A stretch of 23,081 nt of DNA, taken from the IMG/VR virus record IMGVR_UViG_2711768067_000018. One strand, given 5' to 3'. This DNA comes from a virus. Its lineage: Duplodnaviria > Heunggongvirae > Uroviricota > Caudoviricetes. The translations under genes were made by a program, and so were the position numbers. Below, one piece after another: positions 4,325 to 23,081 of this stretch. The first letter of the stretch is position 1. Each line of letters starts with the position of its first letter. The notes under the pieces were generated by a model that was not told the DNA's origin, did not search any database, and saw only the letters and a list, made by a program, of their open reading frames with translations.

Positions 4325-4390
4325 AACGGGAAGGATGCCGCCGGGTCATACCGGCGGCAATGTGACGATGAGGTGTCGGGAATGGCACAA

Positions 4391-6249: not shown

Positions 6250-6263
6250 GGTGTTTACTCCGT

Positions 6264-6761: not shown

Positions 6762-7042
6762 TACGGTTTCCCCCTGCCCTTAAAGCGGCGCTGAATGGCA
6801 ATCTCAATCACCTGATAACCGGCGATACCCAGCATGGAGCCGATGCCGCACACCGCAGGCAGTGACAGGTCAGGAAACTGCACCAGAACAACACCGGCAA
6901 CCATCGAGACAAAACCACCGAGCAACATGCGCCCGATAAACAGACGCGGGGTGATGGGTTCACCACCGGCAAGCACCTTGCCGACAACAATCAGCACCCC
7001 AATCATGAAAAGCGACAGGACGCTTTTTTCTTCTGCTGTCAT
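6761..7042 (-). CDS. Y: Holin Y
   Basis: 93-aa ORF with hydrophobic TM segments and a charged C-terminus (RRFKGRGKP); P2 gpY size and position. Confidence 0.85.
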   Translation of the reverse strand: MTAEEKSVLSLFMIGVLIVVGKVLAGGEPITPRLFIGRMLLGGFVSMVAGVVLVQFPDLSLPAVCGIGSMLGIAGYQVIEIAIQRRFKGRGKP

Positions 7043-7045
7043 GCG

Positions 7046-7249
7046 TTACTCCCACAGATTGACAGTTTCAGCCACGGGCGCGGTCTGAACGTCGGGCAGT
7101 TCGACGGCGGTGCCGTGTGGCAGCACCGCGCCCAGTTCAGCCAGTCCCGGATTTGCGGCGAGCACGGTCTCGACCACGCCCTCAGTGCGCCCGTAATACC
7201 GGACACAAATGGCGTCGAGCGTGTCGCCCTGTAGCGCAAAGGTCTTCAT
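7046..7249 (-). CDS. X: Tail protein X
   Basis: Starting at the internal Met (MKTFALQGDTLDAI...) gives 67 aa, the size of P2 gpX; the ORF-track start 69 nt further upstream (7318) would overlap L. Confidence 0.8.
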   Translation of the reverse strand: MKTFALQGDTLDAICVRYYGRTEGVVETVLAANPGLAELGAVLPHGTAVELPDVQTAPVAETVNLWE

Positions 7250-7758
7250 CAGATTTGACTCACGATGCAGCGCGGCTTGTCCTGGATACGCGCCACCGCC
7301 CAGCGCATATCCCGCCACAGCTCATCAATGGTGCTGTCAATGCTGTCGGCCTTCTTGTCGCCTTTCGCACTGGCATCCACGCCGCGATAACGCTCATAAA
7401 GCGACGCGGTCGCCATCGCACACACGGCGCGCTCGTAGTAAAAAACTTTGATGCTTTCACCGTCGATATCGTCTGCCGGAACGTCTGCCAGACGCGTAAA
7501 ACCGGCGGCAATTTTCTGTTCGCGGTATTCGTACAGCTCCGCATTCGTCTCCGCCATGCCTGACTTGATGGCCTCACGCAGACGGGCGGGGGCGACGGTC
7601 TGCTCAAGGCGCATACGTTCCCGGACGCGCTTCGGGTCGATATCGGGAAAAAAGAACGTGTTTTTAATCACCGGCTCGTCGCCTGCCGGTTGCGGGATGA
7701 CCACCGTACCCTCACCGGACACGGGAGCCTCCTTTCGCGGAATAATCAGCGTCATCAT
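7249..7758 (-). CDS. L: Head completion / capsid stabilisation protein L
   Basis: Start chosen at ATGATG (7758/7755), preceded by AGAGG with a 5-nt spacer; gives 169 aa, the size of P2 gpL. The ORF-track start at 7818 lacks an RBS. Confidence 0.85.
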   Translation of the reverse strand: MMTLIIPRKEAPVSGEGTVVIPQPAGDEPVIKNTFFFPDIDPKRVRERMRLEQTVAPARLREAIKSGMAETNAELYEYREQKIAAGFTRLADVPADDIDGESIKVFYYERAVCAMATASLYERYRGVDASAKGDKKADSIDSTIDELWRDMRWAVARIQDKPRCIVSQI

Positions 7759-7857
7759 GACTACCTCTGAAAAGTCGGGCGGTGGACGCCGGTGCAGTGT
7801 CAGGTGATTCACCCTCACTGACCGGCGTGCCGCCCTGGCGCGGGGCGCATTCGGTTG

Positions 7858-8601
7858 TTAACTGGCTTTCTTTTTCGGGCGTCCACGTTTTGCCGGTGTC
7901 ACGCTCCGGGTCTTACGCGGGGCGCGGGTGGCCGCTTTTGGCTGCGGCTCCGGCTTCGGTTTCAGCTCCCGCTCCAGTCGTTCAATCTCTTTTTTGACGC
8001 CTGCCTGACAGTCGAGCTGTGTCGCACGTTGCAGGTGAGCCAGCGCACCGGCGGCATCACCAGCGTCACGCAGAAACAGACCGGTGATTTTGTGCAGCTT
8101 TGCGCGCACTTCATCAGGCATGTCAGCCGTGGCGGTCAGTTCGAGGGTGTCCGTCAGCAGGCGGGTATCCACAGACTCACCGGCAGCGTGGGCGCGCATG
8201 GCCGCAAGTGCCACCTCCTCGGTGAACATGTACGGCGGGGTGCGGCGGTGTTTACCCGGCATGGTCAGACCGTATTTCAGGGCATAACGGGCAATCTCCA
8301 GCGCACCGGCAATATCGCCGGTATCCAGACGCCACAGCATGAGCGTCATCAGAATGTCATCCTGTGCACCTTTGCCCTGCTCCAGCACACCGTTCACCCA
8401 CGGCAACCAGAACGGCAGCAGTTCGCGCTTTTTCGCGGCCTTCAGCTCTTTTGAATAAATCGCTTTCAGTGTGCGCTGGTCTGCGGCGAGCTTAACCAGC
8501 ATCTGCTCATAGACAGTTGCATGTCGCAGCGGGGCGGCTTCCCGCTGCGCGGTCATCGCTGCCGAGACCCGCATCATGTGGCGCTGTGCGGGACTCGTCA
8601 T
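7858..8601 (-). CDS. M: Terminase endonuclease (small) subunit M
   Basis: 247-aa ORF, the size of P2 gpM, with a basic Lys/Arg/Pro-rich C-terminal tail; follows capsid gene N. Confidence 0.85.
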   Translation of the reverse strand: MTSPAQRHMMRVSAAMTAQREAAPLRHATVYEQMLVKLAADQRTLKAIYSKELKAAKKRELLPFWLPWVNGVLEQGKGAQDDILMTLMLWRLDTGDIAGALEIARYALKYGLTMPGKHRRTPPYMFTEEVALAAMRAHAAGESVDTRLLTDTLELTATADMPDEVRAKLHKITGLFLRDAGDAAGALAHLQRATQLDCQAGVKKEIERLERELKPKPEPQPKAATRAPRKTRSVTPAKRGRPKKKAS

Positions 8602-8604
8602 CGG

Positions 8605-9678
8605 TTACGCTCCCGACTCTGCGGTCGCCTTAGCCGGTGTGGAGAAATCACCGACCTTGATTTTTTCCACCAGACAACCGGCGGCGTAGTCTTCCACCAC
8701 GTAATCAATGTTCATTGACTCGTAGTTCTCCACGCGGTCGAGTTTCGGGTTTTCCACAATCACGCGGCGATGGCTGTCATCCATGTAGTAGATGGACAGG
8801 TTTTCCAGCTTCGTGATGAGCATCGCATCCGCCGGGAAGTACGGGACGCGTACCGCCGGCAGGTTACCGATGCGTTTCTGGCTGATGATGACGTCAGCGG
8901 CCAGCATTTCGCTGTTGTCCTGCTCCTTGTTGACGATGGGAAAATACTTGTCCGCCAGTAGCTGACGTCCCACAATCACCACAAGGTCAGGGTCTTCCTG
9001 ATACCACGGCTCAATCAGGTTGTTGGTCGCATCCATCACCAGTGCGTCAAGGCTGGCATAATCACCGCCCTTACCCACGCGGATAACCTCAGAGGTGGTG
9101 TGCCCTTCCTCGTCAGTGACCTTGCTCATCACGCGCGCCGGTGCTTCATTGCGGTATTTCTGCAGCCAGCCGACCGCCACATCCTGTAGCATCGGATTAC
9201 TGCTGCGGTCAGAGGTTTCGGCACGCCTCACGCCGTTAAAACCGGCCATGATGAAATCAAGGGACTGGCGTTTGATAATGGCGTTACGGACACGGAGCTG
9301 GAAATCCTGATAACGCGCCCACAGGTCAAGCGTTTTGTAGCGGATATAAAAATCGAAGTTAATCTGGTCGCATTCGTACTTGTTTGACGCCAGCTTCGAG
9401 AAGTCCTTCGGCTGACGCTCGGTGCCACCGGCGGTGTCGGTGGTGCTGGCGATGGAGCCGGTGACACCAATACCAATTTTTTCCCCTTTCATTTCGCTGA
9501 CCGGCACAATATTGATGCGGGTCAGAAAATCAGAGGACTCCTGCATGGTGTTCATCAGGGTCTGGGTGACCGACGGTTCAACGGTGAATTTTTTCGACAC
9601 ATCACCGGCGTCGATGCCGTTCAGTTCGGCAACACGGGACAGGTAGGCATTAAATTTAAAGCGGGTTTCCTGGCGCAT
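8605..9678 (-). CDS. N: Major capsid protein N
   Basis: 357-aa ORF, the size of the P2 gpN precursor, between O and M. Confidence 0.9.
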   Translation of the reverse strand: MRQETRFKFNAYLSRVAELNGIDAGDVSKKFTVEPSVTQTLMNTMQESSDFLTRINIVPVSEMKGEKIGIGVTGSIASTTDTAGGTERQPKDFSKLASNKYECDQINFDFYIRYKTLDLWARYQDFQLRVRNAIIKRQSLDFIMAGFNGVRRAETSDRSSNPMLQDVAVGWLQKYRNEAPARVMSKVTDEEGHTTSEVIRVGKGGDYASLDALVMDATNNLIEPWYQEDPDLVVIVGRQLLADKYFPIVNKEQDNSEMLAADVIISQKRIGNLPAVRVPYFPADAMLITKLENLSIYYMDDSHRRVIVENPKLDRVENYESMNIDYVVEDYAAGCLVEKIKVGDFSTPAKATAESGA

Positions 9679-10587: not shown

Positions 10588-10760
10588 TGTCAGGAGTCCT
10601 GAATAGTGATTAGAGGAGTCACATGTCGGCATCAGTTTCCCGACGATGCGCATCCTCCGCCATCAGTCCCGGATGGCTTATCACTGACACAACAGCACCT
10701 TAGCGAATCGCGGGGCGCGACTCAGTAGCCTTGCCGTGTATTCATCACGGCGAGGTATTC

Positions 10761-12533
10761 ATGACCATCACCACAGACACCACTCTTTTACACGACCCGC
10801 GTCGTCAGGCGGCGCTGCTGTACTGGCAGGGATTTTCCGTGCCGCAGATTGCCGCCATGTTGCAGATGAAACGCCCGACGGTGCAGAGCTGGAAGCAGCG
10901 CGACGGCTGGGACAGCGTTGCCCCCATCAGCCGTGTCGAAATGAGTCTGGAAGCGCGGCTGACCCAGCTCATCATCAAACCGCAGAAAACCGGCGGTGAC
11001 TTCAAGGAAATTGACCTGCTCGGACGCCAGATTGAACGACTGGCACGGGTCAACCGTTACAGTCAGACCGGCAACGAGGCAGACCTTAATCCGAACGTCG
11101 CTAACCGCAACAAAGGCGGGCGTCGCAAACCGAAAAAGAATTTTTTCAGTGACGAGGCCATCGAAAAGCTGGAGCAGATTTTCTTTGAGCAGTCTTTCGA
11201 ATATCAGTTGCACTGGTATCGCGCCGGGCTTGAGCACCGCATCCGCGATATCCTGAAATCCCGCCAGATTGGCGCGACGTTTTATTTTTCCCGCGAGGCG
11301 CTGCTGCGCGCCCTGAAAACCGGTCATAACCAGATTTTTCTGTCGGCCAGTAAAACGCAGGCGTATGTGTTCCGCGAATACATCATCGCCTTTGCCCGGC
11401 TGGTTGACGTTGACCTGACCGGTGACCCGATTGCCCTGGGCAATAACGGCGCAAAACTGATTTTTCTCGGCACCAACTCCAACACCGCACAGAGCCATAA
11501 CGGCGACCTGTACGTCGACGAGATTTTCTGGATCCCGAATTTTCAGGTACTGCGTAAGGTGGCATCAGGTATGGCCTCACAGAGTCACCTGCGCTCGACC
11601 TATTTCTCCACCCCGTCCACGCTGGCGCACGACGCCTACCCGTTCTGGTCGGGGGAGCTGTTTAACCGGGGACGCGCCAGCGCCGCTGAACGCGTGGAAA
11701 TCGACGTCAGTCATAACGCCCTTGCCGGTGGGCTTCTCTGTGCGGACGGCCAGTGGCGGCAGATTGTCACCATTGAGGACGCGCTGAAAGGCGGCTGCAC
11801 GCTGTTCGACATTGAGCAGCTCAAACGTGAAAACAGCGCCGACGATTTTAAAAACCTGTTCATGTGTGAATTTGTTGACGACAAGGCGTCGGTGTTCCCG
11901 TTCGAGGAGCTGCAACGCTGCATGGTCGACACGCTGGAAGAATGGGAAGACTATGCGCCGTTTGCCGCCAATCCGTTCGGCTCCCGCCCGGTATGGATTG
12001 GTTACGACCCGTCACACCGTGGCGACAGCGCCGGATGCGTGGTACTGGCACCGCCGGTGGTGGCCGGTGGCAAATTCAGAATACTTGAGCGTCACCAGTG
12101 GAAAGGCATGGACTTTGCCACTCAGGCTGAATCCATCCGCAAACTCACTGAAAAATACAACGTCGAATACATCGGAATTGATGCCACCGGCCTCGGTGTC
12201 GGCGTGTTCCAGCTCGTGCGCTCGTTCTATCCCGCCGCGCGCGATATCCGCTACACGCCGGAAATGAAAACCGCAATGGTGCTCAAGGCCAAAGACGTCA
12301 TCCGCCGTGGCTGTCTGGAATATGACGTCAGCGCCACCGACATCACCAGCTCGTTTATGGCTATCCGCAAGACCATGACCAGCAGCGGACGCAGCGCCAC
12401 GTATGAGGCCAGCCGCAGCGAGGAAGCCAGCCACGCCGACCTCGCCTGGGCGACCATGCACGCCCTGTTAAATGAGCCACTCACCGCCGGTATCAGCACC
12501 CCGCTGACATCCACCATTCTGGAGTTTTACTGA
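10761..12533 (+). CDS. P: Terminase ATPase (large) subunit P
   Basis: Start at ATG 10761 (MTITTDTT...), preceded by GCGAGGT; 590 aa, the size of P2 gpP. The ORF-track start at 10731 is a TTG with no RBS. Transcribed divergently from O as in P2. Confidence 0.9.
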   Translation: MTITTDTTLLHDPRRQAALLYWQGFSVPQIAAMLQMKRPTVQSWKQRDGWDSVAPISRVEMSLEARLTQLIIKPQKTGGDFKEIDLLGRQIERLARVNRYSQTGNEADLNPNVANRNKGGRRKPKKNFFSDEAIEKLEQIFFEQSFEYQLHWYRAGLEHRIRDILKSRQIGATFYFSREALLRALKTGHNQIFLSASKTQAYVFREYIIAFARLVDVDLTGDPIALGNNGAKLIFLGTNSNTAQSHNGDLYVDEIFWIPNFQVLRKVASGMASQSHLRSTYFSTPSTLAHDAYPFWSGELFNRGRASAAERVEIDVSHNALAGGLLCADGQWRQIVTIEDALKGGCTLFDIEQLKRENSADDFKNLFMCEFVDDKASVFPFEELQRCMVDTLEEWEDYAPFAANPFGSRPVWIGYDPSHRGDSAGCVVLAPPVVAGGKFRILERHQWKGMDFATQAESIRKLTEKYNVEYIGIDATGLGVGVFQLVRSFYPAARDIRYTPEMKTAMVLKAKDVIRRGCLEYDVSATDITSSFMAIRKTMTSSGRSATYEASRSEEASHADLAWATMHALLNEPLTAGISTPLTSTILEFY

Positions 12534-13567
12534 TGAGCAAGAAAAAAGGGAAAACACCGCAACCTGCGGCAAAAAAAATGACCGCCAGCGCCCCGAAAAT
12601 GGAAGCATTCACCTTTGGCGAGCCGGTACCGGTACTCGACCGCCGTGACATTCTGGATTACGTCGAGTGCATCAGTAACGGCAGATGGTATGAACCACCG
12701 GTCAGCTTTACCGGTCTGGCAAAAAGCCTGCGTGCTGCCGTGCATCACAGCTCACCGATTTACGTCAAACGTAATATTCTGGCCTCAACATTTATCCCGC
12801 ATCCGTGGCTTTCCCAGCAGGATTTCAGCCGCTTTGTGCTGGATTTTCTGGTGTTCGGTAATGCGTTTCTGGAAAAGCGTTACAGCACCACCGGTAAAGT
12901 TATCAGGCTGGAAACCTCACCGGCAAAATATACCCGCCGTGGTGTGGAAGAGGATGTTTACTGGTGGGTGCCGTCCTTCAACGAGCCGACACCTTTCGCG
13001 CCCGGCTCCGTGTTTCATCTGCTGGAGCCGGATATTAATCAGGAGCTGTACGGCCTGCCGGAATATCTCAGCGCCCTTAACTCTGCCTGGCTGAATGAGT
13101 CGGCCACGCTGTTCCGCCGCAAGTATTACGAAAACGGCGCACATGCCGGATACATCATGTACGTCACCGATGCCGTGCAGGATCGCAACGATATCGAAAT
13201 GCTTCGCGAAAACATGGTTAAGTCGAAAGGCCGCAACAACTTTAAAAATCTGTTTCTCTATGCCCCGCAGGGGAAAGCTGACGGCATTAAAATTATCCCG
13301 CTCAGTGAAGTGGCAACGAAGGACGATTTTTTTAATATCAAAAAAGCCAGCGCCGCTGACCTGCTGGACGCGCACCGCATCCCCTTTCAGTTGATGGGCG
13401 GCAAGCCGGAGAACGTCGGGTCACTGGGTGATATTGAGAAAGTGGCAAAGGTCTTTGTCCGCAATGAGCTTATCCCGTTACAGGACAGGATTCGGGAAAT
13501 AAACGGCTGGCTCGGTCAGGAGGTCATCCGCTTTAAAAACTACTCACTGGACACTGACAACGGCTGA
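12533..13567 (+). CDS. Q: Portal protein Q
   Basis: 344-aa ORF, the size of P2 gpQ; its ATG overlaps the P stop (TGATG). Confidence 0.9.
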   Translation: MSKKKGKTPQPAAKKMTASAPKMEAFTFGEPVPVLDRRDILDYVECISNGRWYEPPVSFTGLAKSLRAAVHHSSPIYVKRNILASTFIPHPWLSQQDFSRFVLDFLVFGNAFLEKRYSTTGKVIRLETSPAKYTRRGVEEDVYWWVPSFNEPTPFAPGSVFHLLEPDINQELYGLPEYLSALNSAWLNESATLFRRKYYENGAHAGYIMYVTDAVQDRNDIEMLRENMVKSKGRNNFKNLFLYAPQGKADGIKIIPLSEVATKDDFFNIKKASAADLLDAHRIPFQLMGGKPENVGSLGDIEKVAKVFVRNELIPLQDRIREINGWLGQEVIRFKNYSLDTDNG

Positions 13568-13594: not shown

Positions 13595-13736
13595 ACATCC
13601 CGCCATCACGCCCTCACACGCTCACCACCGCACAAAACACCCCGCAGACACACCAACGCCCCAGCAGGCCGACTAAATGCCATCACGACGCGCTCAGGCG
13701 CTGAAAAAATAAAATCAGCACCACCGCCTGCGCGCA

Positions 13737-13755
13737 GTGCTTTCCCCGCCTCGCC
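13737..13755 (-). other. Candidate cos cohesive-end site (19 nt)
   Basis: GTGCTTTCCCCGCCTCGCC is the reverse complement of GGCGAGGCGGGGAAAGCAC, which I recall as the P2 19-nt cohesive end; it is located just beyond Q as in P2 and is followed by a GC-rich hairpin plus T-run (13755-13778). Confidence 0.55.
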
Positions 13756-13993
13756 CGCCCGCTTCATGGGGCGGTTTTAATGCAGTTGCATAGATACTAT
13801 GGATCCGCACCAGTCCTGACCGCACGCAGCCTGAACGGACATCCCCGACGCATGCAAAAACATTCACTTGTTGCATGCAACGGCTTATTTAATGACAAAT
13901 CAACTTAAATTTACAAAATCCACAGGTATGGATACTTTGCGAACATGATAGGCTTACGAGAATTATCGAGCCTATTTTTGACCGGAGCAATGT

Positions 13994-14935
13994 ATGCAAG
14001 GTAAAGTTGACGAACAGCAATCCAATGATATTGAAGCTGAGTTTGGATACTATCCAGTAGAAGTTAACGTTGAAACTGATGATTTTTCTTTACTTACTTT
14101 ACCCGGTCTAGCGGAAAAAACAAATCTTATAAACAATCACAGAAATGTTATTAACGGTTGGATATACCCAGGAAACCAAGAAGTATATAACCTCAATGGA
14201 GGCATATCCACAATGCCTTTTAGCCAACGAGTATTTGGCTTACCCAAAACACACTCACTAAAATTAAAAAATACATCTTCACTAGAAACTCTCAATTTTG
14301 CTGTGTGGTGTCTGTCTTTTTTCAAAGGGATAAGATTAACAACTACTGATGCCGGTTTTTTAGACGCAACCCCAATAAAACCCAGCAAATTAACTGACTT
14401 TATTCTGGTCAAGTGCTCTGAAAAAGAGGTTATAGAATTAGCACTCAAATACATGTCTAGCGAGACAAAAACCAAACTCGCACCAATAAATATAGCAGCA
14501 ATAGTGCATGCACTATTTTTATCCCAAAACCCACAATACCTTAGCTTCGAAAAATTCCAGTATCTTTATATGGCACTGGATAGTTGCTTTGCTTTAACAT
14601 GGGCAGAAAAGAACAAGTGTACAGAAAAGACTCTAAATCACTCCAGGCGCTTGAAGTGGATCTGCAAAACTTATGGAATACCACGACCATCATGGGTTAC
14701 AGGCAAAAAAAACATTACAAACATCCGCAATGAAAACTTTCATGAAGCTATGTTTCATGGTCAACCACTTGGCTTTACCACTATTAACAATTATCAATAT
14801 GGAGATGACATATTACAACAAATGCAGGCTTTAATTTGCCGATTACTCGTTGCGATTCTTGGTGTTAACGCCCCCGATTACATCACATCGAACGTGAACT
14901 CTCGTGAATATCATTCACTAACATTAAAAATATAA
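13994..14935 (+). CDS. Hypothetical cargo protein (313 aa) with HEPN-like R-N-x3-H motif; candidate abortive-infection RNase
   Basis: Uninterrupted AT-rich ORF with GGAG 6 nt upstream of the ATG; motif RNENFH at residues 245-250 (nt 14726-14743); composition clearly different from the phage core. Confidence 0.6.
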   Translation: MQGKVDEQQSNDIEAEFGYYPVEVNVETDDFSLLTLPGLAEKTNLINNHRNVINGWIYPGNQEVYNLNGGISTMPFSQRVFGLPKTHSLKLKNTSSLETLNFAVWCLSFFKGIRLTTTDAGFLDATPIKPSKLTDFILVKCSEKEVIELALKYMSSETKTKLAPINIAAIVHALFLSQNPQYLSFEKFQYLYMALDSCFALTWAEKNKCTEKTLNHSRRLKWICKTYGIPRPSWVTGKKNITNIRNENFHEAMFHGQPLGFTTINNYQYGDDILQQMQALICRLLVAILGVNAPDYITSNVNSREYHSLTLKI

Positions 14936-14950
14936 AACGACTAAAAATAC

Positions 14951-14975
14951 TCTCCAGTAACAATAAGTACTGGAG
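14951..14975. terminator. Hairpin between convergent cargo genes (likely terminator, mainly for the minus-strand transcript)
   Basis: TCTCCAGTA-N8-TACTGGAGA inverted repeat (9-bp stem); a T-rich tract follows on the minus strand (tattttta). Confidence 0.45.
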
Positions 14976-15017
14976 ATGTATTATCACTAAAACCAATAAA
15001 AAATCACAACTAATGCT

Positions 15018-15617
15018 TTACTTAGATAGTTTGTCTTTAATTATATTCAGAACACCAATTATTAATTCACTGATTGGCGTGGCCAACTCAATAGTATTAG
15101 ATGTCGACTTTGTTCTAAAGTCTTTATCTGTCGGGTGTTGAAATGCTGATTTAAGAAGAGTCAAAAGCAAAGTTAAACCCACACCAAGGATGAATGCAAC
15201 AATAGCTATTAGAGAACTGGCCGATAACCAATCGGTGGATAAACCAGAAATAGATTTTCTAACTTTATTAGTGTCTGAAGATGGTGTTATCCTCTCATCA
15301 GCCATCTTCGGATCCGAAGATAAAGCAGAACATTTTTCTGCTGAAACACAAGTTTGTGTATCTACTTTTTGTGTTATCGCTGCGGCAATACTGCTTTTCG
15401 CTTCCAGCAAGCCATTTCCAACAGCCAAAGCAAAGTTAAGCCCCTGCCATAGAAATGTACAAGCAAAACAAAGCACAACGGCAGAGAGCACTAATCGCAT
15501 ACTTCTACGCTCTATACCATCCCGTCTATCTCGCCTTATAAGGATATCAGGATCTAAATCGCCCTTAGGAGTGGTTCCTTGCTCTGGGGACTGTCCAGAT
15601 AAATCAATATCAGCCAT
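15018..15617 (-). CDS. Hypothetical two-transmembrane-segment protein (199 aa); candidate membrane effector
   Basis: Two hydrophobic stretches (about residues 42-68 and 144-166) flanking a hydrophilic region, charged N-terminus; AT-rich; downstream of and co-oriented with the ImmA-like gene. Confidence 0.65.
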   Translation of the reverse strand: MADIDLSGQSPEQGTTPKGDLDPDILIRRDRRDGIERRSMRLVLSAVVLCFACTFLWQGLNFALAVGNGLLEAKSSIAAAITQKVDTQTCVSAEKCSALSSDPKMADERITPSSDTNKVRKSISGLSTDWLSASSLIAIVAFILGVGLTLLLTLLKSAFQHPTDKDFRTKSTSNTIELATPISELIIGVLNIIKDKLSK

Positions 15618-15620
15618 AAA

Positions 15621-15658
15621 AAAATCACCCTTACATGTACAAACGTAAAGGTGATTTT
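15621..15658 (-). promoter_or_regulatory. Terminator-like hairpin with U-tract that overlaps the RBS of the membrane-protein gene
   Basis: 13 of 14 bp inverted repeat AAAATCACC(C)TTAC / GTAA(A)GGTGATTTT with a 10-nt loop; on the minus strand the 3' arm (containing the GGGTGA Shine-Dalgarno-like sequence) is followed by TTTTTTT and then the ATG at 15617. Confidence 0.5.
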
Positions 15659-15683
15659 AAACAGGTTAAAAGTTAAAGGCTAA

Positions 15684-16169
15684 TTAATAAGCCATTCCTA
15701 AGCTCTTTAAGCGCCAATGCATAGCGGCTTCTGATACATTAAAGATGCTTGCTAATCTCAAAGTGCTATCAATACCTTCTCTGGATACCAATTGACGTAT
15801 AGCAGACTCAGGCATTAACAACTCAGCAGCAAACTTGTTTGCTTCAACCTCACGGTAATCACGAGCACCTGTTGAATAATTCCCGACATTATCCCGATGG
15901 TACTCTCCGTCCTGGGTATGCCCCAGCACATGATGACCTAACTCGTGTGCAACAGTAAAACGTTGACGATTAGAATGTTCACTAGAATCAAAATAAATCC
16001 TATGGACACCCTTTTTGATGACAGCCAGACCGCTTAACCCATCGTTGTTATAAGCCGATTCCTCAAGTGCTTCAACACGAGCACCCCACGCTTTAGCAAG
16101 CTTAAACGGATCGACAGGTAGTCGGCGATCCCAATAGCGGTCAAGCAGTTTTTTAGCTGCATAGCTCAT
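15684..16169 (-). CDS. ImmA/IrrE-family zinc metallopeptidase (HEXXH)
   Basis: 161-aa ORF with HELGHHVLGH (HEXXH) and a downstream EANKFAAELLMP motif typical of ImmA/IrrE (COG2856-type) peptidases; AGGAGG 5 nt upstream of the ATG. Confidence 0.85.
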   Translation of the reverse strand: MSYAAKKLLDRYWDRRLPVDPFKLAKAWGARVEALEESAYNNDGLSGLAVIKKGVHRIYFDSSEHSNRQRFTVAHELGHHVLGHTQDGEYHRDNVGNYSTGARDYREVEANKFAAELLMPESAIRQLVSREGIDSTLRLASIFNVSEAAMHWRLKSLGMAY

Positions 16170-16205
16170 GGTTGCCTCCTACGTTAAAAAAGTTAAGTAT
16201 GCACA

Positions 16206-16234
16206 GCCATATCACAGTTGTTATTTTATGTCAA
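16206..16234 (-). promoter_or_regulatory. Candidate sigma70 promoter for the ImmA-like gene
   Basis: On the minus strand: TTGACA (16234-16229), 17-nt spacer, TGaTATGGC extended -10 (16211-16206), about 35 nt upstream of the start codon. Confidence 0.5.
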
Positions 16235-16890
16235 GGCTGTTTTTCAGCCATTACTATAACACTAATCCACGTTTTCCCATAACATTTTCGACATCATATA
16301 TGCATTCAGTTCTGCATATAGAGCTTATCTTTGCTGATAACACGAGATGAATACGCGCAACCAGCCCACGATTTATAAAAAACCTTATAAATCAGAATAT
16401 TGAGTTAAAAAAACACTAACTACTTGCGCAGCGAGTTGTTAAACCTCAGCGATACTAAAAGAAAATTTCAGAGTCACCGAAGTTTCCACAGAAAACGCAA
16501 CTTAATGATTTTATTGGAATTTATGTCGCTATTTTTAATTACTTGTTTAAATCCGCCATATTGAAACTGTGCATTTCTAGCCACTCACAACTTTAAAAAA
16601 TTTACATTGCTTTCAAGACCTTATCATCCGTAGTCTCTGCTTTTTACTTTGAGCTATATCAAAAAAAGCTCAAACATCCTTGATGCAAAACCAGTATTAC
16701 ACAACATAAAATGCAACCAGAAACAACGACATACTATATGTTGTGTTGTTCAGGTCCTCTGTTCGGTGATATGCCAGATCACTTTGCGTTTAAACAGAGC
16801 ATTATTTCAGGGCAAGACTTCGCTCAATAGTCACTCCGCCTTAGAAGCGCATATATCGGCGGAAATTGCCCTCTGCTTACAGGAGGCGAT

Positions 16891-17004
16891 ATGAAGAAGT
16901 GCTATTACTGCATTCTCGTTCTGGCCCTCTTTGGCTATCCATATGGTAGTCCGAGTGGTTTGTCAGTAAACGTCAGTAATATCCATGTAAGTATTTTTCT
17001 TTAG
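16891..17004 (+). CDS. Small hydrophobic ORF (37 codons), hypothetical
   Basis: AGGAGG with a 4-nt spacer before the ATG; translation MKKCYYCILVLALFGYPYGSPSGLSVNVSNIHVSIFL; followed immediately by a strong terminator. No homology evidence available. Confidence 0.3.
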   Translation: MKKCYYCILVLALFGYPYGSPSGLSVNVSNIHVSIFL

Positions 17005-17016
17005 TATGCTTCAAAC

Positions 17017-17047
17017 AAAAAAACCACCTGCCAGGGTGGTTTTTTTG
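17017..17047. terminator. Bidirectional rho-independent terminator
   Basis: AAAAAAACCACC-TGCCAG-GGTGGTTTTTTT: stem flanked by an A-tract on one side and a T-tract on the other; located between the small plus-strand ORF and the 3' end of minus-strand gene A. Confidence 0.65.
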
Positions 17048-17306
17048 CGCCCGTCATCAATCCGATGAAAGACTAGCAAGACTTCGCTCGAGATGAATTA
17101 TGCTTCGACATAAAGTCACTCGCAATGGTTTTATTAACCGAAATAGATGCTCTTTTATGACTCGAATCAAATAGCTGCCTTCAATTACATGCTAACGATT
17201 CAATACAATTTAGCCTTCTGATTCAACACGCTATTGCTCCTCATCTACCTTAGAGGTGTTTCGCATAATCCATTCAAAGACATATAAAATCACGCTGTAT
17301 TTTTAC

Positions 17307-19583
17307 TCAAATGGATAACAAAAATCCCGGCCAATCATCAGCGACCTGATAAGTGAAAGGTTTCCCGTCATAATTTACGGTCGCGCCACGCGCCAGCGCC
17401 TCAAGCTCCCATCGTTGCGGCCTGATACCGTTCTGAGCGAGATCAACGCGGATACGGGTAATTTGCAATCGTTCCGACCGGGTCAGTCTGGCCGATGGTG
17501 CAATTTCATGCGGTTTTAACGGGCTTCCGTTTCTTTGCTGACGGTTTGGCGTTCTCCGGTCGTGTTTTAATGCGCCCCTGAGCGCCCTCACGACCTCCGG
17601 GTCATTCCATTCGATAACATCGTCATCAACCAGATTAAGCACTGCTGCGGCGTGCTCAGAAGGTGTGGGAGCCGGTAACGAAGTATCACCACCGGTGAGC
17701 TTTCCACAGTTATTGACAGGACTCCGAGGCGCGGCGATGCCGCTTTTTAAAGTCAAAGGCTCAACGACCGGAACTTTCGGCACAATGCGCCAGTCCGTCG
17801 TTCTGGTGATATGAATATGACGCGCGCCGAGATGCGGCGCGTAAATGCCGACCACTCTCTCGACTTCTTCCTCGTACTCGTTAACGTCATCCGACAGACT
17901 ACGGGCGACTCTGACAGTCTGGCAATCGCGCGGAACATTTGCCCCGCCCTGCGCGCTGATATACAGCGCAAAATCACCACTGTCTGCGGCGGCGCGTGCA
18001 GCCTCGACGCGCTCGTCAAACTCATCAGCAATGCTGACGCCGCGAGGCAATTTGCGTAGTTCACGGTAAGCCCCCATTGTCGGCAGGCCAACCGTTTTAA
18101 ATTGCGGAATGCGCCACGTTGACGCCCATGCGGTAACAGCCGCTGCAGTGTCTTTCAACGGCCTGCCGGTGTCGTTATCGAGCTGACCATCCAGTGCATA
18201 GCCGTCGATGTTTTTTGAAATGTATTTCGCGATATATCCCGCAGCACCGCCCCGGTTAAGGTGTTTTGCCTGAAAACGGTTTCGCGCGGCTCCTCTTTCG
18301 TCGCCATCCTCTTTGAGCGCATAGCGACGCATGATTTCGATAATCTGGTTACGCTGGCGTGGATGACAAAAAAGCATCATATGCCAGTGCGGCGTTCCGT
18401 CGTGGTGTGGCTCGACGACTCGCAAACCGTAGACCTGTAAATCATTATCCTTGAATGCCGTGCGCATCAGGCTCCAGATACGGCAGAGATAACGCTGCGC
18501 ATCCTTTGGATTAAATGCCTCATCGTTCCAGCCGTGATTAAGCTGAACGGTTTTACTTTCGCCTTTTCCGACCTGACGTGTCGGGTGATACTTTGACGGC
18601 GCGGTCAGCGTGATAAACATCCCCACATCACCCTCTGCGGCGGCGTAACGCTCAATACCGGCAATGGTGTTCATCAGCTCCATCCGGCGAATTTCAGGAT
18701 TAGAAATACTGCCCATCACCTTACTGATAAGGTCGATGCGCTCGCCGGTTTCCCTGTTTTCAAGGTCACACGATTTAAGAAATTCCAGATTTGCCTGGCG
18801 GCGCGCACGCACATCACGAATGGCGTGTTTACTGGCATAAGGAGAACGGTCTTTATTGACCTCCCCGACAGCTATCAGTAACGCCTCATGCCAGCGCATA
18901 CGCTGGCCTTTAAGCTGATGAGTCCACCACTCATCGTTAAACAGGCGGGCAATGGCAGAATATGCCTGCCTCGTGGTCATCTGTCCTTTACGGTATTTTT
19001 TCCAGTAGAGCGGGGAAATATTGAAAGCACGTGCAGCGCCAGCAACATGACCATACAGGTGAGCCTGCGCCTCATCCGTAAACAGCGATTCTTTTTCACC
19101 ATGCGCATCAACCCATGCATCGCAGAGTTCCTCATACATCATGAAAAGCTGCGATGAGATACGGGCGGCAAACTTTTTCAGCTCCTTGTCATTCATTCCC
19201 GGCAGGCGCGCATAGTGGTCACGCTCTGCCAGAAACAGCAACGACGCGTCGGTGTTCATTTCATGGCGCTGATTCACACGCTCAATGCGCGGCCATAAAC
19301 GACGCTGAAAAGTAGATGTGAGGAAATAAAACCCGTGCACCGGGCTTTTATTGCGCCGGATGTAGTCATAGCGTGAAGTAAACAGCGAGCGCAAAAAGTA
19401 AGGCAGGCGGTTAATCGTGGATAAAACACCTTGCACCTGACGCATCTCGTCACGTGTAAGAGGTCTTTCGCGCCCGACAGCCTCGCGTGGCGCGTTCCAT
19501 GCATAAGCACCGGTAAACGCCTTACCGGTGCCTGCGGTAAATGCTGACGGAGGGACAAAACGCCCGGAGGCTTTAACGGCCAT
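17307..19583 (-). CDS. A: Replication initiation protein A (rolling-circle nickase)
   Basis: Long ORF in the P2 gpA position; start chosen at the ATG at 19583 (MAVKASGRF...), as the ORF-track start at 19625 is a TTG. About 758 aa, close to P2 gpA. Confidence 0.9.
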   Translation of the reverse strand: MAVKASGRFVPPSAFTAGTGKAFTGAYAWNAPREAVGRERPLTRDEMRQVQGVLSTINRLPYFLRSLFTSRYDYIRRNKSPVHGFYFLTSTFQRRLWPRIERVNQRHEMNTDASLLFLAERDHYARLPGMNDKELKKFAARISSQLFMMYEELCDAWVDAHGEKESLFTDEAQAHLYGHVAGAARAFNISPLYWKKYRKGQMTTRQAYSAIARLFNDEWWTHQLKGQRMRWHEALLIAVGEVNKDRSPYASKHAIRDVRARRQANLEFLKSCDLENRETGERIDLISKVMGSISNPEIRRMELMNTIAGIERYAAAEGDVGMFITLTAPSKYHPTRQVGKGESKTVQLNHGWNDEAFNPKDAQRYLCRIWSLMRTAFKDNDLQVYGLRVVEPHHDGTPHWHMMLFCHPRQRNQIIEIMRRYALKEDGDERGAARNRFQAKHLNRGGAAGYIAKYISKNIDGYALDGQLDNDTGRPLKDTAAAVTAWASTWRIPQFKTVGLPTMGAYRELRKLPRGVSIADEFDERVEAARAAADSGDFALYISAQGGANVPRDCQTVRVARSLSDDVNEYEEEVERVVGIYAPHLGARHIHITRTTDWRIVPKVPVVEPLTLKSGIAAPRSPVNNCGKLTGGDTSLPAPTPSEHAAAVLNLVDDDVIEWNDPEVVRALRGALKHDRRTPNRQQRNGSPLKPHEIAPSARLTRSERLQITRIRVDLAQNGIRPQRWELEALARGATVNYDGKPFTYQVADDWPGFLLSI

Positions 19584-19848
19584 ATGAGCCAAAAGCCTCT
19601 GAACAACGCTTGCTGAGTTGCTCAACCTGCGCGTTTAAATCAGCAAAAGATTTTGCGCTTCCGGTCAGAATATCGTGATGCATCAGGCCGGAAACGAGCT
19701 GGCCTAATTTCGGGTAATAACCAACCACCGCCAGCCATTCCTGACCGGCGTTTTTACCGCTTTCCGCTCTCTTTTTCTCGTGGAGAATAAACTGAAAGCT
19801 GTCACTGGTAACGACATAACGTTCGCCAATTTCAATACGAATACTCAT
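19573..19848 (-). CDS. Small early protein (P2 orf83-like), hypothetical
   Basis: 91-aa ORF; its start overlaps the upstream ORF stop and its end overlaps the A start, part of the B-A operon. Confidence 0.7.
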   Translation of the reverse strand: MSIRIEIGERYVVTSDSFQFILHEKKRAESGKNAGQEWLAVVGYYPKLGQLVSGLMHHDILTGSAKSFADLNAQVEQLSKRCSEAFGSYGR

Positions 19849-20069
19849 GCCGTTCTCCGGTAATGTTTGTTTTTTGCTTCAAAGACTGACTGACAGGAAA
19901 CACAACGCGTGGCTGACGGATAAGCCGCACGACGGGCAGCAGGTATTGGCGCGTCACACTCTTCGCAAACCAGCGCAGAAACACCGCAATGTTTTACCCT
20001 TGCCGCGTTAATCTGGCGCTCCAGTAATTCAGCCTGTTGTTCCTGAATAAAATCCACGTTGTCCGGCAT
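19845..20069 (-). CDS. TraR/DksA-family C4 zinc-finger protein (P2 orf82-like)
   Basis: 74-aa ORF with CEEC-x17-CVSC zinc-finger spacing typical of TraR/DksA proteins. Confidence 0.75.
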   Translation of the reverse strand: MPDNVDFIQEQQAELLERQINAARVKHCGVSALVCEECDAPIPAARRAAYPSATRCVSCQSVFEAKNKHYRRTA

Positions 20070-20374
20070 TACCAGCTCCTTTTGTCGTTCAGCTTCTTAA
20101 ATTCATCAGCGCAATAACTGGCGAGTTCTGTCGTTAATTTTGTCAGTTCATCCACTGAGGAAATTTGCTTGTGGAATACAGCGCGTTTAACAAGTAAATT
20201 GACCACATCAGACAGGAGGTTTAATTCACTCTGATAAATCGCGATAACAGATTCAGTTATTTCGCGCTTCTCTTTATCAATACCAAGTTGAATAAGAGAC
20301 AAATCACCATTTTTCATAACGGCGATTTTTAAGGCGTTATTCAGTAATACAACCGAACGAGAACAGGACATCAA
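20069..20374 (-). CDS. Small early protein (P2 orf81-like), hypothetical
   Basis: 101-aa ORF with start/stop overlaps to its neighbours. Confidence 0.7.
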
Positions 20375-20595
20375 AGCACCTCCCCGCGAGACAATCCGAT
20401 ATTGTGAAATTTTTCCGACTCCTGACTGAGCAGCTCAACTATCTCCACGCGGGATAACTCCGCCTTTGTGATGTGGCGAATCATGGCGTCAAGATGAGAA
20501 GAAAAGCGCGTCGCAGCGTCGGCCTGTGCTTCGGTTCTGGCCTGTTGCAGCAGTAATGCGTATTTACCGCACTGATTTTCAGAAACTGTATGCAT
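20371..20595 (-). CDS. Small early protein (P2 orf80-like), hypothetical
   Basis: 74-aa ORF downstream of B; its stop overlaps the next start (ATGA). Confidence 0.7.
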
Positions 20596-20658
20596 GACTT
20601 TCTCCAGGCAAAAAGAAGCCCCGCACGATTAAGTGCGTTAAAAACTCTGGTTAATTAT

Positions 20659-21159
20659 TTAATGCAGATATTGCTCTGGTTTTACCGACGTCAGAATTGT
20701 CGGTGCATACTCAAACAGACTGAATAATTCACGTAATGCACGGAATAAAGCATCACGCCAGTAACATGATTCTTCATTAATTCGCCAGTACGGCTGGTTG
20801 AATTCTTTTTCTGTCAGTCGTGCGTGCATAAATAAAGTACGTCGCTGGCTGACTGTTAAAAAACTAATATATGCATACTCACTTGCACCGACCTGACGGC
20901 GTTTTGAGAATGCCCCACGCAATTCATCAATTGCACAAACCAGCCGTTCACGTTCGACGTCGTTCATTTCTTCAAAACGCATCGTTGCGTGACGCTGTTT
21001 TAACTGTGCATGAAAGCAAACCGTTAGCCGTTCGCGCTCCATCATCTGATTATAATAATCACATGTATCCTGCCAGCGAGGGACGGCAAGATGCTTGCCA
21101 ATTATCCGGCGCATAGCTGCTGGCTGTTTTTCAACGAGATTGAGCGTCATCACTGTCAT
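20659..21159 (-). CDS. B: Replication protein B (helicase-loader-like)
   Basis: Start at Met3 of the ORF-track translation, preceded by GGAGGG with a 7-nt spacer; gives 166 aa, the size of P2 gpB. Confidence 0.85.
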   Translation of the reverse strand: MTVMTLNLVEKQPAAMRRIIGKHLAVPRWQDTCDYYNQMMERERLTVCFHAQLKQRHATMRFEEMNDVERERLVCAIDELRGAFSKRRQVGASEYAYISFLTVSQRRTLFMHARLTEKEFNQPYWRINEESCYWRDALFRALRELFSLFEYAPTILTSVKPEQYLH

Positions 21160-21353
21160 TTCCATACCCTCCGGCTTTTCAGAAAGGTCAGAGCCTTTTT
21201 TAACGGACTCTGTTTTTTGGTGCGGATAATGATTCCCTTACGCCCCTTACCGTGGGTGATGGTGAAGTCAATCGCCCTGGGGCTTTCGTTACGCAATAAC
21301 TGAGCAATACAACGCGGCTCATTCATAATCACAACCCCATCCACAAAAGCCAT
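21156..21353 (-). CDS. Small basic protein between cox and B (P2 orf78-like position), hypothetical
   Basis: Lys/Arg-rich ORF whose stop overlaps the B start; an alternative start at 21326 lies just after the cox stop. Short and uncertain. Confidence 0.4.
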   Translation of the reverse strand: MAFVDGVVIMNEPRCIAQLLRNESPRAIDFTITHGKGRKGIIIRTKKQSPLKKALTFLKSRRVWK

Positions 21354-21601
21354 GCATCACGCTGTTCAACCGGTCGGTTATAAAACGCCTCACGTACAGC
21401 GCGATTAAACTCAGGAATGAAAACCCATTTTTCACCGGCACGAGCCTTCGGTTTGCAAGGATCACGCAATTCAATAATTGGTAATTTATTTGCCTTCACC
21501 ATTTCACTGACGGCTGTCTTTGGCTTCCCTAATAAATCAGCAAATTTATCCACATGAACCGCATCAAGCGGATACTGAATCACATAATTTTCAGCGTCCA
21601 T
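21329..21601 (-). CDS. cox: Cox-like excisionase / lytic-switch regulator
   Basis: About 90 aa from the ATG at 21601 (GAGGG upstream); first gene of the early operon, divergent from C, with a conserved W..W C-terminal region like P2 Cox. Confidence 0.8.
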   Translation of the reverse strand: MDAENYVIQYPLDAVHVDKFADLLGKPKTAVSEMVKANKLPIIELRDPCKPKARAGEKWVFIPEFNRAVREAFYNRPVEQRDAWLLWMGL

Positions 21602-21677
21602 ATATGGTACCCTCATAGGATCCAGCCCTTTCTAAACCACTCAAAACCGTTTAGATGCTGGTTTATTCTCAAATCAA

Positions 21678-21726
21678 TGGAACCTATATAGGTTCCAGTT
21701 TTGAGGGAATTTAGTCCCTATATAGG
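21678..21726. promoter_or_regulatory. Candidate operator palindromes in the cox-C switch region
   Basis: Perfect 20-bp palindrome TGGAACCTATATAGGTTCCA (21678-21697) and a second copy of its core CCTATATAGG (21717-21726), both in the 136-bp gap between the divergent cox and C start codons; each core contains a TATATA -10-like hexamer. Confidence 0.5.
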
Positions 21727-21737
21727 CACCATGTCAA

Positions 21738-22031
21738 ATGAAATTAAGCGAAAAGATTAAGGCCTTGCGTGAGGCTGAAGGGCTAAGCCAATCAAAATTC
21801 TGTGAAATCATAGAGTTACCGCTAAGCACACTTAAAAAATATGAAGGAGGAAACTTTGAACCCGGTGGCACAGCTTTGCTAAAAATCACTATGCATCCCA
21901 CATTCCAAAAATATGCTCTATGGCTTATGACAGATAAAACCGCGCCGGACGCAGGACAAATCGCACCGGCTCTCGCGCACATTGGGCCAGAGTCAACAGA
22001 GTCCAACCACTCCGCGAAAAGGATTGGCTAA
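21738..22031 (+). CDS. C: Immunity repressor C (HTH)
   Basis: 97-aa ORF with a helix-turn-helix-like segment (LSQSKFCEIIELPLSTLKKYE) and a GQIAPALAH C-terminal region resembling P2 C; located between cox and int. Confidence 0.8.
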   Translation: MKLSEKIKALREAEGLSQSKFCEIIELPLSTLKKYEGGNFEPGGTALLKITMHPTFQKYALWLMTDKTAPDAGQIAPALAHIGPESTESNHSAKRIG

Positions 22032-22100
22032 CTCTATATAAAGATTACATTTTCACCATTTGCTACCAAGATGGTGAATACAGCGCCGGAGGGCTTTCTT

Positions 22101-23081
22101 ATGGCAATTAAGAAGCTCGATGATGGTCGCTATGAAGTGGACATTAGACCTCGCGGTCGCGACGGAAAACGCATCCGCAGGAAATTCGAAAGAAAAGCTG
22201 AAGCACTAGCATTTGAGCGATACACAATCGCCAATGCCAGTCAGAAAGAATGGGGAGGCCAGCGAGCAGACCGCCGGACTTTGAGTGAGTTGCTGGACAT
22301 CTGGTGGAAATATCACGGGCAAAACCACGAGCATGGAACAAAAGAGTTTAATCATCTACTCAAAACCATCAGCGGCATAGGTGATATACCAGTGAGCAGG
22401 ATGAGCAAAAGGGCTTTGATGGATTATCGTTCCATGCGACTACGTGATGGTATCAGTGCCGCAACGATAAACCGTGACATGTACCGATTATCCGGCATGT
22501 TCACAAAATTAATTCAATTGGATGAATTTTCCGGGCAACACCCAATTCACGGACTGCCGCCACTGGCGGAGGCCAACCCTGAAATGACGTTCCTGGAAAA
22601 AGCAGAAATCGAAAAACTGTTAAATGTTTTGGCTGGTGATGACTTACTTGTCGCGCTTTTATGTCTGAGCACCGGAGGAAGATGGACGGAAGTTGCCACG
22701 CTAAAACCAGCACAGATTACAAATTGCAGGGTTACCTTCCTGAAAACCAAAAACGGTAAAAAGCGAACCGTGCCGATTTCTGAGGAACTGGAGAAAAAAG
22801 TTAAAGAGGAGGCCAGCGCCAAATTATTCAAAGTTGATTATGAGAAATTTTGCGGGATTTTACGCAGAGTGAAACCTGATATACCACCCAATCAGGCAAC
22901 CCACATCCTGCGGCATACATTCGCAAGCCATTTCATGATGAATGGGGGCAATATAATCGCACTGCAACAGATTCTGGGACATGCGAGCATTCAGCAGACG
23001 ATGGCCTATGCGCACCTTGCGCCTGACTATCTGCAAAATGCCGTCGCTCTGAATCCACTAAAAGGCGGAGTGACGTTATAA
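22101..23081 (+). CDS. int: Tyrosine integrase (P2 Int family)
   Basis: Start at ATG 22101 (MAIKKLDDGRYEVD...), preceded by GGAGGG with a 7-nt spacer; C-terminal catalytic region with H-x-L-R-H and a YAH tyrosine motif; the stop codon is the last 3 nt of the window. Confidence 0.9.
   Translation: MAIKKLDDGRYEVDIRPRGRDGKRIRRKFERKAEALAFERYTIANASQKEWGGQRADRRTLSELLDIWWKYHGQNHEHGTKEFNHLLKTISGIGDIPVSRMSKRALMDYRSMRLRDGISAATINRDMYRLSGMFTKLIQLDEFSGQHPIHGLPPLAEANPEMTFLEKAEIEKLLNVLAGDDLLVALLCLSTGGRWTEVATLKPAQITNCRVTFLKTKNGKKRTVPISEELEKKVKEEASAKLFKVDYEKFCGILRRVKPDIPPNQATHILRHTFASHFMMNGGNIIALQQILGHASIQQTMAYAHLAPDYLQNAVALNPLKGGVTL

Follow-up and report, generated by a model that had tools for sequence, protein, structure and literature searches.

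The 23,081-nucleotide stretch of IMG/VR virus record IMGVR_UViG_2711768067_000018, whose full length is called the window here, is a P2-like prophage that runs opposite to the usual P2 map and carries an AT-rich cargo island between its portal gene Q and its replication gene A. This island is a mosaic in which three accessory cassettes can be exchanged independently of one another: the single gene ORF313 (module 1), a gene pair encoding an ImmA-like peptidase and a protein with two transmembrane segments (the 2-TM protein; module 2), and a small open reading frame (ORF) element that adjoins gene A (module 3). Each cassette is probably a conflict module that would serve phage exclusion, addiction, or both. 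The island, its cassettes, and its borders are laid out as follows:

13799–17306, no strand: variable AT-rich cargo island in the P2 gpQ/cos–gpA hotspot (G+C content and flank comparison)
13994–14935, plus strand: module 1, consisting of ORF313 alone, which encodes a HEPN-like protein and predicted RNase with an N-terminal beta-rich domain (motif and model)
15018–15617, minus strand: module 2, gene 2, a 199-residue 2-TM protein, predicted N-in/C-in (hydropathy and homologue alignment)
15684–16169, minus strand: module 2, gene 1, a 161-residue ImmA/IrrE/CapP-like M78 zinc metallopeptidase without a helix-turn-helix (HTH) domain and without an Xre neighbour (PF06114)
16721–17170, no strand: conserved core of module 3 (~450 bp), a candidate type I toxin–antitoxin, always adjoining gene A (alignment of 24 copies)
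10731–12533, plus strand: terminase gene P, running towards cos
12533–13567, plus strand: portal gene Q, running towards cos
17307–19625, minus strand: replication gene A, the other island border

A mosaic of three cassettes between Q and A

For each cassette, examples without the other two are known from further P2-like prophages and from loci outside phages. For example, phage P2DC1 and additional E. coli prophages have the ImmA-2TM pair immediately adjacent to the portal gene, with no intervening ORF313. ORF313, in turn, is accompanied by unrelated genes and no ImmA in both phage vB_EcoM-720R8 and the P2-EC67 record; the latter already has the hypothetical protein under the name "ORF313". 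Module 3 lacks ImmA in 21 of the 28 viral contigs that carry it, and its companions are AAA-ATPase cargo, an insertion sequence element, or nothing else in the hotspot. Among 5426 complete E. coli genomes, module 3 is present in 150 (~3%), ORF313 in 98, and this ImmA-2TM allele in 47–50, while the entire island occurs at 99.5–99.9% identity in 46. The complete genome of Salmonella phage MET_P1_103_31 also carries the island, 99.7% identical across 96% of the query.

The island stands out from the rest of the prophage by composition. Its G+C content is 38.3% (13870–17306) versus 54.8% for the remainder of the window; along the sequence the value falls from 0.52–0.60 to 0.33–0.44 inside the island, and by gene it amounts to 53.6% for A, 52.4% for Q, and 36.6–44.4% for the cargo genes. 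The flanking genes are typed as Phage_GPA, portal, and terminase. Matches to other P2-like phages are confined to 13600–13798 and the end of A. The conserved P2 sequence thus breaks off at ~13798 and picks up again at the A stop codon, and the variable stretch extends over ~13799–17306, a little wider than the 13870–17306 first proposed. These flanks are common to 2159 E. coli genomes and many Peduovirus records; the interior is not. Variable DNA enclosed by conserved gpA and gpQ/cos places the island among the cargo of the P2 A–cos (tin/old) hotspot.

Much of the first-pass annotation of this DNA has held up. The distinct AT-rich composition was recovered, the tin/old position between A and cos/Q was confirmed by the flanking genes P, Q, and A, and the A-to-Q comparison across P2-like phages bore out a hotspot whose flanks are conserved while its content is swapped; as had been proposed, the genes it holds here have nothing to do with morphogenesis or replication. 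Of the genes named there, the peptidase and the 2-TM protein stand, the HEPN motif stands under a label that is reasonable rather than proven, and the small ORF stands only in the form of a 37-codon gene. The proposal that these genes make up one combination or module is not supported, as ORF313, the ImmA-2TM pair, and the small-ORF element are each found without the others. The island is best taken apart cassette by cassette.

A peptidase paired with a two-transmembrane protein

Besides its two genes, module 2 contains two regulatory features:

16206–16234, minus strand: putative promoter-like site of the ImmA-2TM operon (TTGACA, 17 nt, TATGGC; read from the sequence)
15621–15658, minus strand: strong hairpin with a U-run that ends just ahead of the 2-TM ATG, read as an intrinsic terminator or attenuator (folding z-scores −3.7 to −4.7)

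The first gene encodes a member of the M78/ImmA-IrrE family. PF06114 (Peptidase_M78) matches it at 3.8e-21 (75.6 bits; cut-off 22), and the HExxH motif is intact as HELGH, with H75, E76, and H79 invariant. The top PADLOC match is CapP (1.1e-30, profile positions 8–153 of 242), the closest solved structure is CapP 7t5t (E 7.6e-7), and RmrA profiles match at 6e-17 over their peptidase half only (positions ~146–292). No HTH match was obtained for any scanned island ORF, and no ORF longer than 81 residues is present in 16170–17306; the adjacent Xre-type HTH repressor of CapH/CapP and ImmR/ImmA is thus not found here. Downstream of the promoter-like site, an AGGAGG sequence lies 6 nt before the peptidase ATG. 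The site is kept in P2DC1 and in an E. coli locus (L004); the consensus promoter scan does not list it, as that scan demands a T at the final −10 position. A 60-residue ORF (16168–16350) was considered as a further gene and rejected, having no family matches.

The 2-TM protein has hydrophobic segments at residues ~42–64 and ~133–156, and the first is preceded by an Arg-rich stretch (seven Lys/Arg in residues 26–41). The TM2 sequence AFILGVGLTL.LTL.K is invariant or near-invariant in 21 homologues, and a layout of TM2, Pro, acidic linker, Pro, and C-terminal amphipathic helix is common to the protein and its distant relatives. Searches of Pfam, PADLOC, and NCBIfam returned no family match; the protein matches phrog_8096 (function unknown). 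Matches to holin families are weak (Phage_holin_3_6, E 0.004–0.09, under the 28-bit cut-off), so that by profile the protein is not a class II (2-TM) holin, although its N-in/C-in hairpin topology is similar. A contig pattern scan with the 2-TM alignment yielded matches, none of which was confirmed by tblastn. The 159-residue gene after ImmA in P2DC1 was considered as a different effector; BLAST identified it as a member of this 2-TM family whose start had been called at an internal Met, and the idea of a variable effector was withdrawn.

Adjacent, co-directional ImmA and 2-TM genes occur in three unrelated settings, namely P2-like prophages, a Serratia chromosomal islet, and a Vibrio harveyi element that carries serine recombinases. 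A scan with the ImmA alignment, restricted to one genome per species, gave more than 568 relatives, and 78 loci were analysed. In 26 of these 78, the peptidase gene is followed by that of a 2-TM protein (119–258 residues), whose start lies between −17 and +68 nt relative to the peptidase stop; the codons often overlap. Of the 26 membrane proteins, 23 form a single BLAST cluster with that of the window. By record title, the 26 pair loci belong to beta-, gamma-, delta-, and epsilon-proteobacterial genera. None of the 26 pairs has a coupled Xre gene, nor is there a tightly coupled upstream ORF in any class A locus, and HTH families are not among the 25 commonest Pfam families of 110 neighbouring ORFs at 20 class A loci; the Xre partner is confined to the more distant class B loci. 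Distant ImmA relatives (loci L053–L092; for example, L066, match 4001–4477, and L075) belong to a three-gene unit that consists of an overlapping upstream Xre HTH gene (~110–135 residues), the peptidase, and an RNase T/Exonuclease X-T-like gene of ~455–490 residues. Their record titles name Alphaproteobacteria, Acidobacteriota, Verrucomicrobiota, and others.

In Serratia (L008/L009), a second pair lies ~1.8 kb downstream of ImmA-2TM (7463–9246) and encodes a 223-residue protein and a 371-residue HTH_3 plus Peptidase_M78 protein, an architecture that we take to be that of the RosmerTA antitoxin. The ~1.8 kb between the two pairs (5660–7463) contains no called gene.

The hairpin, with its U-run, lies in the 66–75-nt gap between ImmA and the 2-TM gene in enteric and Vibrio loci, reaches the 2-TM start codon or stops one base short of it, and also buries the likely ribosome-binding site of that gene. 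Its structure is kept, with differing stems, in E. coli (L004, ~4960–5000), Serratia (L008, ~4960–5000), and Vibrio (L010, ~4973–4999). These features suggest an attenuator that makes the membrane protein much scarcer than the protease.

To our knowledge, every characterized M78 relative (ImmA, IrrE, CapP) is a latent, signal-activated, site-specific protease that acts on an adjacently encoded partner, and by analogy the island peptidase is probably of the same kind. Since no Xre repressor is present, we infer that the 2-TM protein may be its partner in a two-gene operon. The peptidase would act on the cytoplasmic N- or C-terminal tail of the 2-TM protein, and processing of this tail would switch a holin-like, membrane-permeabilizing activity; the opposite polarity, with the peptidase neutralizing the 2-TM protein, may apply instead. 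The terminator hairpin would meanwhile hold the 2-TM protein far below the level of the peptidase. This model draws on the family precedent, the absent repressor partner, the tight and widespread coupling, and the attenuator; the adjacency of the two genes is conserved, and the architecture of the cytoplasmic tails is shared. If the peptidase does act in this way, the ImmA/IrrE/CapP family gains a non-repressor substrate, and a protease-controlled membrane effector, encoded by a pair common across Proteobacteria, joins the known designs of conflict systems.

Several known systems share the M78 protease with HExxH, including CapH/CapP, ImmR/ImmA, and DdrO/IrrE, with CapP as the best match by both profile and structure. 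In contrast to these systems, the island and the class A loci have no HTH gene or domain, and the conserved neighbour is a 2-TM protein. The island peptidase is also shorter than CapP, as the span of its profile match indicates, and, unlike CapH/CapP, which is placed beside a defence operon that it regulates, it has no such operon next to it in the island: PADLOC detected neither a cyclic-oligonucleotide-based anti-phage signalling system (CBASS) nor any other known defence system in the island. RosmerTA and PD-lambda-2 are likewise defence or toxin–antitoxin systems; their core is an M78 peptidase, and the toxic partner varies. The peptidase components RmrA and PD-lambda-2B are HTH–peptidase fusions of ~360–400 residues. 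The peptidase described here is instead free-standing, 161 residues long, and first in its operon, and its presumed partner is a membrane hairpin; no Xre-HTH–M78 fusion with RmrT is present, and the 2-TM protein has no PADLOC match. A source for the architecture of these two systems is Vassallo (2022). The accessible part of an earlier study lists Xre, RelE, and PIN partners for COG2856 and mentions no membrane partner (Makarova et al., 2009).

ORF313 and the element beside gene A

ORF313 has 603 homologues at E ≤ 0.001, which are mostly from Gammaproteobacteria among the 120 listed. Within its RNENFH motif and the following residue, R245, N246, H250, and E251 are invariant in 33 homologues at 44–79% identity, and the resulting RNxxxHE pattern conforms to the catalytic Rx4-6H motif of HEPN proteins. 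No Pfam, PADLOC, or NCBIfam family matches ORF313, which falls in phrog_5937 (function unknown), and a profile search of the PDB gave chance-level matches to ribonucleotide reductase R2 only. An AlphaFold2 model (predicted local distance difference test score, pLDDT, 83; predicted template modelling score, pTM, 0.84) is confident overall and divides into a beta-rich N-terminal and a helical C-terminal portion, the latter appearing weakly HEPN-like.

The homologues of ORF313 are lone genes without a conserved partner. In P. aeruginosa (five loci shown), the homologue lies ~3 kb from a gene pair with GajA and GajB Pfam domains, one member having AAA_15/AAA_21 and an OLD-like TOPRIM domain and the other being a UvrD helicase; DUF932 and ParB_N genes are further neighbours. 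In Aeromonas, the homologue forms a small islet amid housekeeping genes. Within the window, ORF313 converges on the 2-TM gene, with a possible terminator between them:

14951–14976, no strand: hairpin with a 9-bp stem between the convergent ORF313 and 2-TM genes, possibly a shared terminator (terminator scan, both strands)

ORF313 may be a stand-alone latent RNase with a HEPN-type RNxxxH site in its C-terminal helical domain. The N-terminal beta-rich domain would hold this RNase in check until an infecting phage is sensed, after which ORF313 would cut RNA in an abortive infection type of response. This N-terminal domain of ~140 residues, without an identified relative, sets the protein apart from known HEPN RNases. 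If this view is true, ORF313 would extend the HEPN-type effectors by one whose sensor domain is new.

The third cassette lies in the 1.1 kb between ImmA and A, a stretch without a long ORF. Within it, the following features were recognized:

16891–17004, plus strand: 37-residue hydrophobic small ORF, MKKCYYCILVLALFGYPYGSPSGLSVNVSNIHVSIFL (AGGAGG 5 nt upstream of the ATG)
16812–16825, plus strand: 14-nt target in the leader of the small-ORF mRNA, complementary to the 5′ end of the predicted small RNA (sRNA) and a direct repeat of 17076–17089
17017–17047, no strand: bidirectional intrinsic terminator (A-run, GC stem, T-run; sequence and folding)
17015–17125, minus strand: predicted antisense sRNA of ~75–80 nt (~17015–17090) with its promoter (promoter scan)

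Across 24 distinct copies, the core of module 3 has 2–10 variable columns per 50 bp versus 18–37 in its flanks. Substitutions in the small ORF fall 3, 0, and 8 times on codon positions 1, 2, and 3 (11 variable sites), which argues that the 37-codon ORF is translated and under purifying selection. Some records (e.g., ECW_m2278) include the ORF as a "hypothetical protein"; none of the 30 E. coli RefSeq rows listed has an annotated feature under the module 3 match. An in-frame TAG at 16828–16830 splits a 39-codon upstream ORF (16711–16830) from the 37-codon ORF. Another candidate, an 81-residue ORF (16649–16894), was rejected as a gene, as a 2-nt indel breaks its frame in relatives; its one family match, to Cmr5, is at chance level (E 0.006). 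In E. coli 600468 (L013, 1280–3215), an AAA family ATPase (442 residues) and a 205-residue hypothetical protein sit beside the small-ORF element in the same hotspot.

The bidirectional terminator is common to the small-ORF mRNA (plus strand) and the predicted sRNA (minus strand), is near-invariant in all aligned copies, and probably ends the gene A transcript as well. The predicted sRNA promoter (TTGCGA, 17 nt, CATAAT; 17125–17097) has most hexamer bases invariant in six aligned copies. The 5′ end of the predicted sRNA carries GAGCGAAGTCTTGC, and its predicted fold consists of a small 5′ stem-loop, a second stem-loop, and the terminator. The 14-nt target sits 66 nt upstream of the small-ORF ATG, and the pair 16812–16825/17076–17089 is the sole repeat of at least 11 nt in 16560–17310. 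Complementarity of 13–15 nt is kept in all three sequence types, though the repeat ends differ. Rfam 15 gave sub-threshold matches only, to RNAI, P9, and Phe leader, on the terminator region, and no PHROG similarity was found for module 3.

Module 3 would encode a 37-residue membrane peptide, and the convergent sRNA would pair with 14 nt of the mRNA leader. Given the predicted convergent transcripts, the shared terminator, and the short direct repeat, the layout matches that of a type I toxin–antitoxin, for which module 3 is a candidate with a predicted sRNA and predicted toxicity. Small hydrophobic genes under purifying selection are typical of this class, and the 37-codon ORF is one. The par locus (Fst/RNAII) of pAD1 is organized as convergent transcripts with a shared terminator and short direct repeats. 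Module 3 resembles it in its small hydrophobic ORF with a long leader, predicted convergent sRNA, shared bidirectional terminator, and short direct repeat. Short trans-pairing is also known from tisB/istR-1, zorO/orzO, and ralR/ralA (reportedly spanning 16 nt for RalA), comparable with the 13–15 nt in module 3. Unlike Fst and Ldr, which have charged tails, the module 3 peptide has a polar, uncharged C-terminal half. If correct, this assignment explains the conserved stretch beside the replication gene that is unannotated in the RefSeq records inspected.

Earlier records and competing interpretations

The hotspot, its AT-rich swappable cargo, and the present gene sets are already on record. Rousset et al. 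surveyed exactly this gpA–gpQ hotspot, and their Table S5A lists an arrangement of Peptidase_M78, hypothetical, and hypothetical proteins with accessions WP_000119270 (ImmA), WP_001161722 (ORF313), and WP_001389947 (the 2-TM protein, N-terminally shortened by a start at an internal Met) (Rousset et al., 2022; PMC9122126). In Table S5B, ORF313 is system #11 (218 occurrences, no Pfam), and Peptidase_M78 with "2 TM in protein 2" is system #21 (148 occurrences); the ImmA given there is identical to that of the window, and the printed ORF313 differs at two residues (PMC9122126). Their inventory attaches no function, mechanism, or name to either system and leaves the small-ORF/sRNA element unmentioned. 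The "Peptidase + TM" of E. coli TA280 was cloned as pFR104, in a fragment that begins where gene A ends and extends to include the TM gene (PMC9122126). This insert took in the native upstream region, and hence module 3; relative to the window, its alleles are 88% identical for ImmA and ~56% for the 2-TM protein. Three of eight extra P2 systems were active against the eight-phage panel (PMC9122126).

For ORF313, the DefensePredictor supplement has a row for the identical protein (WP_001161722.1), labelled "predicted novel defense gene" and showing 9.68 in the first score column, and the accessible part of the main text does not name it among the validated systems (DefensePredictor, 2026; PMC13092281). 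In a 2026 Nucleic Acids Research survey of P2/P4 hotspots, only P4 unknowns were tested. A full-text literature search for the accessions and for the 37-residue peptide gave no match. The first-pass annotation had matched the island to no known defence system. This is correct insofar as PADLOC, Pfam, and NCBIfam match only the peptidase domain; the arrangement itself, however, was already in the 2022 inventory. Lack of protection by a clone, which that annotation named as an outcome that would count against its proposal, has been touched for the peptidase-plus-TM part only, through the homologous pFR104, which was tested and not validated. For part of the island, cloning has thus been carried out before and has yielded no validated defence phenotype. 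Undescribed so far are how widespread and how tightly coupled the HTH-less ImmA/2-TM pair is, its conserved attenuator, the HEPN-type site of ORF313, and the toxin–antitoxin-like element beside gene A.

A broader joint reading is offered tentatively, as less likely than not. The HTH-less peptidase and the 2-TM protein would form a widespread proteobacterial system whose M78 protease has a membrane protein, not a repressor, as its direct target, and the element beside gene A would represent a new type I toxin–antitoxin family specific to P2-like phages. The pair could then be a protease-gated, holin-like effector for abortive infection or a new toxin–antitoxin pair, and the lack of validation in the earlier test would be due to the small range of phages used or to silencing of the AT-rich native promoter. 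AT-rich immunity loci are reportedly silenced by H-NS, according to a preprint abstract.

A number of observations speak against these interpretations of the three cassettes. For ORF313, no Pfam family, HEPN_Apea and other HEPN models included, matches any of 33 diverse members at E ≤ 1, a difference from HEPN RNases such as HepT, Csm6, the AbiA HEPN domain, and Apea-like HEPN; moreover, the RNxxxH segment is the least confident part of the model (pLDDT 40–56), and a Foldseek search with that model found nothing in the PDB and no whole-chain match. For module 3, the hydrophobic stretch of the peptide is short (~13 residues), no sigma-70 promoter for the small-ORF mRNA was found by eye or by promoter scan, and the commonest allele has AAG at the TAG site, in which case gene callers give an 88-residue protein from an internal ATG. 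For module 2, pFR104 appears in Table S2B among the "additional tested systems", the validated ones being in Table S2A (PMC9122126). The neighbours of the ImmA-2TM pair outside enterics and Vibrio are mostly housekeeping genes, with few restriction-modification or MADS matches, and guilt by association with defence is therefore limited to the enteric and Vibrio branch.

Some of these observations would also fit a reading in which the cassettes are selfish addiction or stress modules, or H-NS-silenced cargo, with no role in phage defence, and the hotspot is merely where P2 tolerates insertions. The absence of the homologous Peptidase + TM clone from the validated systems, the housekeeping neighbours of distant pairs, and the plasmid-stability type of layout of module 3 agree with it, as does the non-defence cargo known from the P2 hotspot, including partition systems and cytolethal distending toxin (PMC9122126). 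Nonetheless, the reported H-NS silencing of AT-rich immunity loci, the GajA/GajB-like pair near ORF313 in P. aeruginosa, the scoring of ORF313 as a predicted defence gene (PMC13092281), and the RosmerTA-like pair (by presumed architecture) near ImmA-2TM in Serratia are at odds with a purely selfish role, and toxin–antitoxin and defence roles can coexist; this reading is considered unlikely. More doubtful still is a regulatory switch in which the peptidase cleaves a repressor encoded elsewhere, either a P2-type C or that of an incoming phage, and the 2-TM protein is an unrelated exclusion or lysis accessory. It would accord with CapP being nearest in both profile and solved structure and with the characterized M78 relatives all cleaving HTH repressors (ImmR, DdrO, CapH), as is generally known and as the accessible part of Makarova et al. 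(2009) indicates. However, the tight ImmA-2TM pairing in many genomes without phage context or a coupled Xre gene, together with the overlapping start and stop codons at many loci, argues for a functional pair.

Least probable is that ORF313, the 2-TM protein, ImmA, and the small ORF constitute one undescribed multi-gene defence system. The parts do co-travel at ≥99.5% identity (46 E. coli genomes plus a single phage genome), and alleles of ORF313 and of ImmA-2TM at ≥99% identity occur in almost equal numbers of E. coli genomes (47 each). Yet the near-identity of the joint copies points to a single recent haplotype and not to selection for linkage, and the independent distributions of the parts contradict a single system. 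ORF313 is also convergent to the ImmA-2TM operon, and the two were curated separately as systems #11 and #21 (Rousset et al., 2022; PMC9122126). Three exchangeable cassettes, each probably a conflict module, thus remain the preferred view of the island.

Elsewhere in the window, the first ~1 kb (1–1000) is GC-rich (0.65), and the stretch past gene A (19750–23081) is AT-richer (0.43–0.47) than the structural genes.

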